Notes: generated by a model not told the origin, from the letters alone. Numbered from the stretch's first letter, positions 9,179 through 13,313 are shown. The stretch is 32,000 bases of DNA from Candidatus Jordarchaeales archaeon (GCA_038889235.1 JAWAHN010000003.1:173703-205702); one strand, 5' to 3'. Numbers and translations are program-made.

Positions 9179-9517
9179 TTCAAGAAGGCAACGCACGGCA
9201 CACCTTAACTTTTAAGGCTAGTTAAGCCGGGACCACCGGCGGAGAAGTCTGAAAACACGCTGCCCCCAGACGCACTCTACTTCTCTTAAGCCCCCGAGAA
9301 GAGTGGCTGAAACTGCTTCTCACAACCAACTCATCAAGCTTAATCCATCCTCCAACTCTCAGCTCTTAGCTACTCTTCCCCCGTTCAACCGTGAAAATAC
9401 CAAAGCCTTTGAAGCCTGCTAGCTCTCCGACTGGTGGTTTCGGCGCGCGGCTCTTCTTTCAAAAGGCTTTTAAGCCTTTTCTTAGCCTTTTATGCGTGCT
9501 ACTGGAGGGGGAGTTGG

Positions 9518-10585
9518 ATGCCTGTTCTAGACCGGTCGAAGATTAGGGCTGACGTGCTCAAGCTCGTAGACGACTACATGAAAGCACAGATGAACGCCAT
9601 AATGGAGTTTCTCGCAAAGGAGGGTAAAGGCGTAGACTTCCCAGCGCTCTGGGGCAAAGTGATGGCGGGCAACGAACGCTTCTTCAGAAGGGAGATGAGC
9701 GTCGAAGAGCTTTACAGCTGGCTGACCAAGGAGGAAATGCTCTTCCTCGCAAGAATGATGAGGTATGCACTCGAGCGCGTGGCGGCCTTAGAACAGCAAA
9801 AGAGACCCCTTCCAAGCGGCATCACCATAAGCCGTGTCGACGCCGGCGGAGTTCCGGCAGAGTGGCAGGTGCCCCCCGGAGCCTCAAAGGACAAAGTAAT
9901 CTTGTATTTCCACGGGGGAGGGATGGTCATAGGATCCCCTAGAACGCATAGACCGTTGACTGTTAGGCTTGGAGAAGAGGCGAAGGCGAGAGTGTTAAGC
10001 GTGGACTACAGGCTGGCACCAGAATACTCCTACCCCTCTCAGCTGGAGGACTGCGTCAAAGCGTACAAGTGGCTCCTCTCCACGGGTGTGAAGCCAAAGA
10101 ACATAATTGTTGCAGGTGACTCTGCCGGAGGAAACCTGGCACTAACAACACTATTGAAGGTCAGAGACGAAGGAGTGGAGCTGCCGGCTGGAGCAGTCTG
10201 CCTATCTCCGGTAACAGACTGGACGGCTACAGATGAAACATACTTCAAGAACGCGAAAACAGACCCAATCCTAGCAGACGTAGGTGTCTTCTGGTGGGGG
10301 GCGGCCTACCTCGCAGGGGCGAACCCAGCTGACCCACTAATCTCGCCGCTGTTCGCCGACCTAAGGGGACTACCACCGATACTTATCCAGGCGAGCACAA
10401 GCGAGATGCTCTTCGGCGGCTGCAAACGCTTCGTCGAAAAGGCCAGAGCTGCTGGGGTGGATGCAACTTTGCAAGCGTGGGACGATATGCCGCACGTGTG
10501 GCAACTATTCGGAATGTACATTCTCCCAGAAGCAGAGGAAGCAATAGCGAAAATAGGCGAGTTCACCCGGAAACTACTCTGGTAA
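9518..10585 (+). CDS. Alpha/beta hydrolase, hormone-sensitive-lipase family esterase/lactonase
   Basis: HGGG oxyanion motif, VDYRLAPE, GDSAGG nucleophile, QASTSEML (acid), DMPHVWQ (His). SD GGAGGGG precedes ATG 9518. Confidence 0.93.
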   Translation: MPVLDRSKIRADVLKLVDDYMKAQMNAIMEFLAKEGKGVDFPALWGKVMAGNERFFRREMSVEELYSWLTKEEMLFLARMMRYALERVAALEQQKRPLPSGITISRVDAGGVPAEWQVPPGASKDKVILYFHGGGMVIGSPRTHRPLTVRLGEEAKARVLSVDYRLAPEYSYPSQLEDCVKAYKWLLSTGVKPKNIIVAGDSAGGNLALTTLLKVRDEGVELPAGAVCLSPVTDWTATDETYFKNAKTDPILADVGVFWWGAAYLAGANPADPLISPLFADLRGLPPILIQASTSEMLFGGCKRFVEKARAAGVDATLQAWDDMPHVWQLFGMYILPEAEEAIAKIGEFTRKLLW

Positions 10586-11411
10586 CCTGAAAACTGGAGA
10601 AAGGCCTTCTGGCCGGAGAAGGTTAACAGCCCGCTTCGTCAGAGAAACAATGTCTCCAATGGCGGATTCGAGTTTCGTCCGAACAGTCTTCATGACGCCT
10701 TTTCTTTTTCGCTTCTTCCGCAACTTTCCCTCTTACACGACACCCCCTTCTTCCCTTAACATGCATCCGAGATAGAGTCGCCCTTACAGCCTAACTGTTG
10801 AGGTTGCTTGAGCCTTGTTACGACAAGGACCCTTCACCCCTAGTTTAAAGATTTTTTCTCCTCAGCGAACCCGAAGCTGAACGAACGTTTAGCTCAGCTC
10901 TTTAAGAGGAAAGCCGATCAGCTGAGTACGCCAACTGGAATCAGGGGAACGATTCACATGTTAATAGTCCTCCAAAGTCATCCCTATCAACAGCTTGCTT
11001 CAAGAAGCGACCACGACGACGACGCACGGGTTGAAGCCACTGCACGTCAAAGCCCTTTTCAACAATGTTAAAACGTCCTTGCGAATTCTTCATTTAAGCC
11101 TGATCCGCTCCAGCCAGCTAATTGAAAGCCTAGAAACTGGGCGCTTCAGCACCTCACTTCCGTTAAACAACACTGCGGAAACATGACTCTAGCCTCACAA
11201 GCCTGCACGTTGAACGGCATAATTCTGAAGGGGGCGTGGCAGCAAACTAAGAAAGACTTGTAAACAAGACAGGGTTTGTCTCAGTCCTAGCAGATAGCGC
11301 TGGGTCCTCTCTAAAAACTCGAAGTTAAAAGTCGATGTTAAAAGAAAGGCTTTTAAAGACGAAGAACCCCTTGTGGTCAGTTGCTTAACTTTTTAAGGGG
11401 GGTATGCGCGT

Positions 11412-13313
11412 TTGGAAAAGAGTAGAGTGTCGTACCATAGTTCTGTTGTCGAAATGTATGAGAAGCTGAAAAGTGACGGCGTGACGAACATCTGGGACCG
11501 CTACGTTGCCCAAGGTTTTGGCGGTGACCCCGACAGGAGGTGCCCGTTCTGCCAGGCGGGTGTAAGGTGTGACTTGTGTTCTAACGGCCCCTGCCGTGCT
11601 GACGCTGAGAAAGGTAAGCGCGGCGTCTGTGGGATAACCGCTGACGGTATGGCGATGAGGATGATGTTGCTGAGGAACATTATGGGGGCTTCAACGTACC
11701 AGTTCCATGCCAGCCAGACTATTAGGACACTGAGAGCTACCGCCGAGGGAAAGACACCCTTCACCATAAGGGAAGAGGGGAAGCTGAGGTGGTTCGCCAA
11801 CAGGCTTGGGTTAGAGTCCGACGGGGACCTCGTTGAGATTACTTTGAGCGTTTGCGATTTCATAGAGAAGGACTACGCGCGAAAGTTTTATGAACCAAGT
11901 AGGATAGTTGAGGCGCTAGCCCCGGAGGAGAGGAAGAAGGTTTGGCGTGAGCTTGGCATATTCCCCGGCGGCATATATGAAGAAATAGTATTGGCCGCTA
12001 GCTCCTGCCTGACGAACGTCGACGGCTACTACGTGAGCCTAGCCCTCAAGGCCATGCGTCTATCCATAGCCGTGGCTTACCAGAGCCAGCTTGTGCTTGA
12101 ATACTGCCAGGATATACTTTTCGGCGTCCCTAATCCTCACAAGGTGCGAGTGAACCTAGGCGTCCTAGACCCGGACTACGTCAACGTCTTAGTTAACGGC
12201 CACGAGCCTTTCCTAGGTTTCGCCTTAGTCCAACTCGCGAGAAGGGAAGAGTGGCAGAGGAAGGCTAGGGAGAGTGGGGCGAAGGGGCTTAGAGTGATAG
12301 CAAACATAGAGACGGGGCAGGAAATGATACAAAGATGGGAAGTGGACGACGTCTTCTATGGCTTCACAGGAAACTGGATAATGCAAGAGGCTGTACTGGC
12401 CAGCGGTTGCGTCGACCTCTTCGCCTGCGACATGAACTGCTCTATGCCCATAGATCCCATATACGCTGAAAGATACTCTTTCAGGCTCGTACCTGTAAGC
12501 GAGCTGGTCGCCTTCGAAAGTGTAAAAGACAGGGTGAACTATGAACCCGAGAAAATGGAGGAGCAAGCTGCGAAACTGCTACAATGGGCCATCGAGAACT
12601 TCAAAGAGAGGAGGATGAAGGTTAAACCAGTCACCGGGCTACCCGTCGGCGAAGCAATCACAGGCTTTTCCACTGAAAGCATACTCGACACACTCGGAGG
12701 AAGCCTGACACCACTAGTGGAAGCGATAAAGGCAGGCGACATAAGAGGGATTGCAGGGCTTGTCTCGTGCACAACACTCAGAGATCACGGCCAGGACGTG
12801 CACACCGTAGCCGTAGCAAGGGAGCTCATAAAAAGGGACGTTTTGATTCTAGCGATGGGATGCGGCAATGCAGCCCTCCAAGTTGCAGGTTTGTGCCGCC
12901 CCGAGGCAGTTGAGTACGCTGGCCTAGGGCTCAGGAAGGTGTGCAAGTCGCTCGGAGTACCGCCAGTACTAAGCTATGGAACCTGCACGGACACCGGGCG
13001 CCTAGCAGACCTACTGGCGTTCTTATCAGACGAGTTTGGAGTTCCAATACCTGACCTACCAGTCGCGGCGGTAGCTCCAGAGTACATGGAGCAAAAGGCA
13101 ACGATAGATGCTGTATTCGCGCTCGCCCTAGGACTTTACACGTACGTCAACCCTGTGCCGCCGATAACCGGCGCACCAAACCTAGTGAAGCTGCTGACGG
13201 AAGAGTGCAGAAAGATAACTGGGGGCGTGTTAAACCTTGAGAAGGACCCCGTGAAAGCCGCAGACGCCATCCTAGCGCACATAGAGGAGAAAAGGAGGAA
13301 GCTCGGAATATGA
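11412..13313 (+). CDS. cooS: CooS-family (anaerobic CO dehydrogenase fold) protein, atypical CooS-V/clade D-like active site
   Basis: CPFC (D-cluster), C53/C56/C61/C73 (B-cluster), NGH264, DMNC, VSCTT, GCG, GTCTD, EQKA. Tyr96 sits at the His93 position and IE300TG replaces CCTG. Confidence 0.92.
   Translation: MEKSRVSYHSSVVEMYEKLKSDGVTNIWDRYVAQGFGGDPDRRCPFCQAGVRCDLCSNGPCRADAEKGKRGVCGITADGMAMRMMLLRNIMGASTYQFHASQTIRTLRATAEGKTPFTIREEGKLRWFANRLGLESDGDLVEITLSVCDFIEKDYARKFYEPSRIVEALAPEERKKVWRELGIFPGGIYEEIVLAASSCLTNVDGYYVSLALKAMRLSIAVAYQSQLVLEYCQDILFGVPNPHKVRVNLGVLDPDYVNVLVNGHEPFLGFALVQLARREEWQRKARESGAKGLRVIANIETGQEMIQRWEVDDVFYGFTGNWIMQEAVLASGCVDLFACDMNCSMPIDPIYAERYSFRLVPVSELVAFESVKDRVNYEPEKMEEQAAKLLQWAIENFKERRMKVKPVTGLPVGEAITGFSTESILDTLGGSLTPLVEAIKAGDIRGIAGLVSCTTLRDHGQDVHTVAVARELIKRDVLILAMGCGNAALQVAGLCRPEAVEYAGLGLRKVCKSLGVPPVLSYGTCTDTGRLADLLAFLSDEFGVPIPDLPVAAVAPEYMEQKATIDAVFALALGLYTYVNPVPPITGAPNLVKLLTEECRKITGGVLNLEKDPVKAADAILAHIEEKRRKLGI

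Follow-up and report, generated by a model that had tools for sequence, protein, structure and literature searches.

The 32-kb window of DNA analysed here, to which positions refer unless another locus is named, comes from a Candidatus Jordarchaeales archaeon whose genome sequence measures 2.14 Mb and is 95% complete. The window carries an intact gene that very probably encodes a CooS-V-type protein, namely a member of clade D, structural group D-1, of the nickel-dependent carbon monoxide dehydrogenases (Ni-CODHs) (Table 1). The NCBIfam CooS equivalog model TIGR01702 matches the 633-residue protein end to end with 755 bits against a cut-off of 478. The sole Pfam match is Prismane (481 bits, residues 52-613), and the score of the CdhA model is far under its cut-off. 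The nearest named relatives of the protein belong to Jordarchaeales (88%), consistent with the archaeal origin that a first-pass annotation of this DNA had proposed. Public relatives carry the name 'anaerobic carbon-monoxide dehydrogenase catalytic subunit', and together with the TIGR01702 score this bears out the warning in the same annotation that pipelines would misread such a gene as carboxydotrophy. CO oxidation could be wrongly inferred in this way for genomes of Jordarchaeia, other Asgard archaea, Bathyarchaeia, Hadarchaeia and Dehalococcoidia, and the main value of the present finding is the correction of this annotation.

The C-cluster of active CODHs is held by one His and five Cys residues including Cys295, and His93 and Lys563 form an acid-base pair (numbering of CODH-II of Carboxydothermus hydrogenoformans). 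Both sets are incomplete in the Jordarchaeales protein: Glu300 stands at the Cys295 site, and Tyr96 takes the place of His93 while Lys562 is kept. In HMMER alignments to solved CODHs, Tyr96 falls on the first His of the H-x-x-H relay, and Ile299-Glu300 falls on the Cys-Cys pair of the Thermococcus AM4 (6t7j) and Desulfovibrio vulgaris (6b6v) enzymes, with Glu300 (GAG, 12309-12311) at the second Cys. Lys562, which lies in the stretch Glu560-Gln561-Lys562-Ala563 (13089-13100), is aligned with the conserved catalytic Lys. A 79-sequence family alignment, used as a second check, agrees with these correspondences. Residues and codons were verified by script, which confirms Tyr96, Ile299-Glu300, the CxxC motif of the D-cluster and the EQKA stretch that had been picked out from the DNA alone. 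An Arg, not a Cys, precedes C53, and the CxxC motif corresponds to the 'type III' D-cluster (Gly41 to Cys) of Inoue et al. (2019); by analogy with CooS-V and the D. vulgaris CODH, this cluster would be of the [2Fe-2S] type. All ligands of CooS-V are found in the protein (C44, C47, C53, C56, C61, C73, H264, E300, N342, C343, C453, C484, C525 and E560) when the residue mapping allows for three indels in the alignment.

Table 1 Features of the window and of orthologous loci (locus labels precede the coordinates of the latter, with strands in brackets)
Feature	Position	Strand	Remark
cooS-V-type gene	11412..13313	+	TTG start, 633 aa, TGA stop; intact open reading frame
Cys44-x2-Cys47 (C44-P-F-C47), subunit-bridging D-cluster motif	11541..11552	+	CooS-V Cys38/Cys41
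B-cluster [4Fe-4S] motif C53-x2-C56-x4-C61-x11-C73	11568..11630	+	CooS-V C47/C50/C55/C68
Tyr96-Gln-Phe-His99	11697..11708	+	Tyr96 (TAC, 11697-11699) at acid-base His93 site of CODH-II; second His retained
Asn262-Gly-His264	12195..12203	+	His264 = CooS-V His259, cluster ligand
Ile299-Glu300 (ATA GAG)	12306..12311	+	Cys294-Cys295 site; Glu300 = CooS-V Glu295, defining carboxylate ligand
Asn342-Cys343	12435..12440	+	CooS-V Asn337/Cys338
Cys453	12768..12770	+	CooS-V Cys449
Cys484	12861..12863	+	CooS-V Cys480
Cys525	12984..12986	+	CooS-V Cys521, persulfide carrier in oxidised state
Glu560-Gln-Lys562	13089..13097	+	Glu560 = CooS-V Glu556 and HCP Glu494; Lys562 = CODH-II Lys563
Putative TATA-like element AAAGGCTTTTAAAG	11345-11358	+	Read directly from sequence
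Shine-Dalgarno-like G-rich run GGGGGGT	11397-11403	+	5' of TTG start; read from sequence
Spacer poor in open reading frames, esterase to cooS-V-type gene	10586-11411		826 bp
Abhydrolase_3 esterase, upstream of cooS-V-type gene	9434-10585	+	Hormone-sensitive-lipase-type, GESAG-like
~272-aa 2x[4Fe-4S] protein	L011:3576-4421 (-); L044:3419-4237 (+); L036:7148-7948 (+)		13 other loci
~117-aa Cupin_2 protein	L022:10015-10368 (+); L009:1035-1388 (-); L095:6227-6544 (+)		9 other loci
CopA-type ATPase	L059:3005-5083 (+); L072:9969-12083 (+); L092:9926-12001 (+)		

These residues are highly conserved. Across 92 orthologues from two domains of life, all cluster ligands are invariant and 284 of the 633 columns are at least 95% identical. 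All 20 positions that were checked are alike in all 92 sequences, with the sole exception of one Val for Ile299. Because the same residues recur at these 20 positions in 92 orthologues, the signature substitutions are not due to chance.

The closest protein of known structure is CooS-V. When all PDB sequences were searched, the best match was 7b7q with 702 bits, followed by the Thermococcus AM4 CODH (413 bits), the D. vulgaris CODH (365 bits) and CODH-II (302 bits). The entry 7b7q is CooS-V of C. hydrogenoformans, also called CODH-V (CHY_RS00160), the structures of which are available as PDB 7B7Q, 7B7T, 7B95, 7B97 and 7B9A (Jeoung et al. 2022, PMC9311411). An AlphaFold model of the Jordarchaeales protein built on a 36-sequence alignment has a mean pLDDT of 94.1. 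Its best superposition is on CooS-V (7b9a_B and 7b7q_A), with a TM score of 0.97, a root-mean-square deviation of 1.3 Å and 51% identity; the comparison with the D. vulgaris CODH gives a TM score of 0.93 at 34-35% identity.

Phylogenetic analysis places the protein in the same class. A set of 1.84 billion cluster representatives was searched exhaustively with HMMER, and the full-length representatives among the hits were combined with a spread of orthologues and, as the outgroup, the 801-residue CdhA of the host genome itself. A quick tree of 79 rows and a careful maximum-likelihood tree of 46 rows (IQ-TREE, with ultrafast bootstrap/SH-aLRT support) are concordant. The clades are anchored indirectly, by PDB searches with the representatives and with clade letters taken from the cited papers, and CooS-V is represented by P0122 instead of its own sequence. 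The Jordarchaeales protein falls in a 12-row clade with 100/100 support, in which every member has Glu at position 300 and which includes P0122, whose sole strong PDB match is 7b7q. The first sister of this Glu subclade is a group with CxxC, Asn96 and Leu-or-Met-Cys (P0124, P0125 and P0127), and the next is a group with Cys...Gly, Tyr96 and Thr-Cys (P0129 and P0130). The Glu subclade and both sister groups form a 17-row clade D with 100/100 support, and the groups within it reproduce the structural groups D-1, D-2 and D-3/D-4 of Inoue et al. (2019) (PMC6344411). Outside clade D are P0136, which stands for the CODHs of Thermococcus AM4, Clostridium autoethanogenum and D. vulgaris (6t7j/6b6v), P0138 (CODH-IV, 6elq), P0147 (CODH-II 1su6, Rhodospirillum rubrum and Moorella) and the CdhA of the host genome. 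The protein does not group with the active clades A, E and F, the placement that would speak against a CooS-V-type enzyme; all active anchors lie outside its subclade. In the careful tree, the tight sub-group to which the protein belongs is a 100/100 clade of its own with a star-like interior mixing Bacteria and Archaea, a pattern in keeping with earlier reports of horizontal transfer of CODHs.

The analyses show the CODH fold of the protein, its full set of CooS-V hybrid-cluster ligands and its position in the Glu subclade. The first-pass reading of the gene as CooS-V-type is supported by the best match to 7b7q, the superposition on CooS-V, the placement in the Glu subclade and the presence of all signature residues. 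Each of these signature features has already been published as defining group D-1 or CooS-V, so the class itself is already described. Group D-1 has been defined by the same four features that the first-pass annotation listed (Inoue et al. 2019, PMC6344411), and the replacement of Cys295 by Glu has been called a synapomorphy of the CooS-V subclade (Jeoung et al. 2022, PMC9311411). Comparison with group D-1 revealed no differences. Archaeal clade D genes have also been discussed before, such as cooS of Archaeoglobus fulgidus, which is unresponsive to CO.

The two identical subunits of CooS-V are bridged by an all-Cys [2Fe-2S] cluster and each contain one [4Fe-4S] cluster, and the C-cluster site is occupied by a Ni-free hybrid cluster. 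It contains no Ni and neither oxidises CO nor reduces CO2 (PMC9311411). The background facts given in the first-pass annotation, namely the Cys-to-Glu change in clade D/CooS-V and a hybrid-type cluster without CO oxidation in CooS-V, hold according to the same paper. The hybrid cluster morphs with its redox state, being [4Fe-3S] when reduced and [4Fe-2S-S*-2O-2H2O] when oxidised, with a persulfide on Cys521 (PMC9311411). CooS-V reduces hydroxylamine slowly, with a kcat of 0.13 per s, and NO reduction is not detectable (PMC9311411). Its substrate channel is open only in the reduced state (PMC9311411), and this points to a reductase.

Because every ligand and the named second-sphere residues are kept, the cluster chemistry of CooS-V is the best-supported mechanism for the Jordarchaeales protein. 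By analogy, a [2Fe-2S] cluster on Cys44 and Cys47 would link two copies of the protein into a homodimer, with one [4Fe-4S] cluster in each subunit. Its Ni-free Fe/S/O hybrid cluster would be [4Fe-3S] when reduced and would change on oxidation to an oxo-bridged form that bears a persulfide, and the protein would not interconvert CO and CO2. Given very low cluster potentials and a channel that opens only upon reduction, the protein would most likely be a low-potential reductase whose substrate is a small oxidised molecule, such as a hydroxylamine-, NO- or peroxide-like compound, with a ferredoxin-type electron donor.

CooS-V and the Jordarchaeales protein share the fold, the CxxC motif of the D-cluster, the B-cluster motif, membership of the Glu-bearing subclade and a solitary genomic setting. 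Also common to both are all the ligands of the hybrid cluster and all the second-sphere residues that PMC9311411 names (His, Glu, Asn-Cys, three Cys and Glu-x-Lys). However, the Jordarchaeales protein has a 5-residue insertion ahead of CxxC and a B-cluster loop shorter by one residue. It belongs to a separate, tight sub-group with at least 68% identity across Bacteria and Archaea, and its host is an archaeon that has an acetyl-CoA decarbonylase/synthase (ACDS) and in whose genome the hybrid-cluster protein HCP was not found. HCP (TIGR01703; D. vulgaris 1W9M and E. coli Hcp) resembles the protein in the predicted Fe/S/O hybrid cluster type and the ligand chemistry; the two folds are distantly related, and residues 399-609 give weak matches. 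In contrast to HCP, the protein has the dimeric architecture of CODHs with a bridging cluster. The cluster potentials of CooS-V are about 300 mV lower than those of HCP (PMC9311411). Membership of the protein in the HCP family was rejected, since it scores 41.1 bits against the TIGR01703 cut-off of 360.8.

Several observations weigh against a role as a CooS-V-like reductase. The sole characterised enzyme, CooS-V of C. hydrogenoformans, is just 51% identical, and the distinct, very tightly conserved sub-group (100/100) of the Jordarchaeales protein may act on a different substrate. The hydroxylamine turnover of CooS-V is itself very slow and its NO reduction undetectable (PMC9311411). No partner gene, regulator or stress gene is present at the locus to back a role in reduction or stress, and clade D genes of C. 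autoethanogenum and A. fulgidus showed little phenotype in knock-out and transcript experiments. The very low activities of CooS-V would also suit a redox or small-molecule sensor, or a regulatory protein, in which the cluster rearrangement serves as the signal beside the true CODH of the organism. A genomic-context study published in eLife in 2026 proposes that clades C and D may serve in redox sensing or regulation, regulators being their sole recurring neighbours (about 10%) (PMC13056359), and Rrf2 regulators or GAF histidine kinases adjoin some of the orthologues examined here. We nevertheless consider such a sensor unlikely: Prismane is the only Pfam match of the protein, which has no DNA-binding or signalling domain, no regulator adjoins its gene in the window, and an electron-transfer chain of three clusters with a gated substrate channel suits a reductase better.

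The canonical Ni,Fe-CODHs (CODH-II 1SU8, D. vulgaris 6B6V and Thermococcus AM4 6T7J) share with the Jordarchaeales protein the overall fold, length, B-cluster, five of the six C-cluster ligands and the Lys residue, and the D. vulgaris enzyme also shares the CxxC [2Fe-2S] D-cluster. They differ from it in the positions changed here (Cys295 to Glu, Cys294 to Ile and His93 to Tyr), in sequence (31-36% identity) and in clade, and the protein has no cooC or cooF neighbours. The TIGR01702 score above its cut-off and the retention of five ligands and Lys562 might suggest a functional, CO-oxidising Ni,Fe-CODH that tolerates the Glu ligand and shares the CooC of ACDS, because the host genome must in any case mature a Ni site for CdhA. 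However, CODH-II loses its activity on CO and becomes Ni-deficient when Cys295 is changed to Ala or Glu (C295A and C295E), just as CooS-V lacks Ni and CO/CO2 activity (PMC9311411). The Tyr at the acid-base site, the separation from all active clades in the tree and the absence of an adjacent cooC, cooF or hydrogenase gene also argue against CO oxidation, which makes a functional CODH very improbable. A decaying, functionless relic, as might be imagined from the solitary position of the gene behind an 826-bp spacer and the weak clade D knock-out phenotypes, is barely credible for an intact reading frame with invariant ligands, such column conservation in two domains and a copy in every same-genus genome searched.

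The CO chemistry of the host is found elsewhere in its genome. The genome has only two loci of the Prismane family, the cooS-V-type gene and a bona fide CdhA on contig C2 (1203 bits against a cut-off of 781), which also carries CdhC and is apart from the contig analysed here. With CdhA and CdhC, the host has a real CODH/acetyl-CoA synthase, and its CO/CO2 chemistry is carried by this separate CdhA/CdhC ACDS. Clade D co-occurs with clade A in published genomes (PMC13056359), with which the host genome agrees.

The other three genomes in the genus each carry an orthologue of the gene (84-89% identity); in a sister family, five of six genomes do so (74-75% identity). One sister-family genome (G007) has a second, fragmentary CooS-V-like copy (G007:C68:4800-5638, - strand) with in-frame stops (one TAG and two TAA), which may be a pseudogene or have arisen through misassembly, and another CooS-V-like copy at a contig end. 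Among 301 Asgard genomes that are at least 80% complete, 72 carry a D-1 gene, and the carriers are clustered in few families, with 54 of 92 genomes in one and none of 71 in another. Relatives were found in at least 588 species genomes of Archaea and Bacteria, the best 80 of which are 71-76% identical. Their hosts include Bathyarchaeia, Hadarchaeum, ANME-1, Methanosarcinaceae, Thermoplasmata, Dehalococcoidia, Syntrophorhabdaceae, WOR-3, Actinomycetota and Clostridia. In the sub-group of the Jordarchaeales protein, which spans more than ten phyla of Bacteria and Archaea, identity stays at 68-76%; we tentatively take this conservation to point to a single function that is under strong selection and horizontally mobile, and that the slow activities of C. 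hydrogenoformans CooS-V have not yet revealed.

HCP (TIGR01703) was found in none of 41 Asgard genomes searched (G000-G040), with control genomes positive; here, as for partner genes below, absence means not found in the genomes searched with the queries used. This contrasts with the high co-occurrence of clade D and HCP in a published, mostly bacterial set (PMC13056359). We tentatively raise the idea, which we regard as possible though rather doubtful, that the D-1 CooS-V-like protein is the only hybrid-cluster enzyme of Asgard archaea, doing the job of HCP or reducing a specific low-potential substrate. The high conservation, the wide spread and the lack of HCP in the searched Asgard genomes make the question of the substrate of CooS-V-type enzymes slightly more pressing. 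They leave the class of the protein unchanged.

As the first-pass annotation had reported, no cooC, cooF or acs gene flanks the cooS-V-type gene; none of these, and no hydrogenase gene, is present anywhere in the 32-kb window. The TTG start and a similar G-rich run ahead of it recur in all four same-genus orthologues, and the TATA-like element and the G-rich run (11345..11403) are likely to be expression signals of the gene, with a putative promoter function. Within the 826-bp spacer, no open reading frame longer than 63 residues and no Rfam family at gathering score were detected. The spacer is unique in the host genome, has no blastn similarity to the upstream regions in three same-genus genomes, and gives tblastn matches only at noise level to the proteins encoded next to the gene at orthologous loci. 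In one member of the genus the equivalent spacer measures 188 bp, in another about 989 bp.

The esterase on the other side of the spacer carries an extra N-terminal extension of about 120 residues. An Abhydrolase_3 esterase lies directly upstream of a cooS-V-like gene on the same strand at nine loci, only in genomes of the Jordarchaeia/Freyarchaeota type, and three tandem copies are present in one Freyarchaeota genome. This adjacency probably reflects lineage synteny and not a functional link. Downstream of the gene lies a complete, convergent trpA-to-trpE operon that is unrelated to it, and further open reading frames of the window encode a nucleotidyltransferase, a nitroreductase, an ABC ATPase and others. 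The neighbours in the window thus provided no functional clue, the esterase being only lineage-syntenic and the trp operon convergent.

No universal partner gene was found at about 80 orthologous loci, in agreement with the eLife 2026 study (PMC13056359). The two most scattered recurrent neighbours at these loci are a 2x[4Fe-4S] protein and a cupin. A protein of about 272 residues with an N-terminal 2x[4Fe-4S] domain adjoins the CooS-V-like gene on the same strand at 16 of these loci, at a distance of 8-380 bp and in very different phyla. Its C-terminal part of about 200 residues has no Pfam or NCBIfam match, and it is a candidate for a dedicated electron donor. A Cupin_2 protein of about 117 residues immediately adjoins the gene at 12 loci, in genomes of Jordarchaeia, Freyarchaeota, Promethearchaeota, Methanofastidiosum, Thermococci and Dehalococcoidales and in genomes labelled Halobacteria. 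A search of the host genome with both partner queries gave matches to the ferredoxin domain only, with neither a full-length ferredoxin-domain partner nor a cupin. Other neighbours are restricted to lineages: an MFS transporter in Syntrophorhabdaceae, an Rrf2 regulator in WOR-3 and a CopA-type ATPase in Methanosarcinaceae. None of these five neighbours (2x[4Fe-4S] protein, cupin, CopA-type ATPase, MFS transporter and Rrf2 regulator) is present in the Jordarchaeales window. The CopA-type copper P-type ATPase gene follows the CooS-V-like gene by 21-64 bp in Methanolobus and other Methanosarcinaceae, which hints at a context of metal or oxidant stress in this family.

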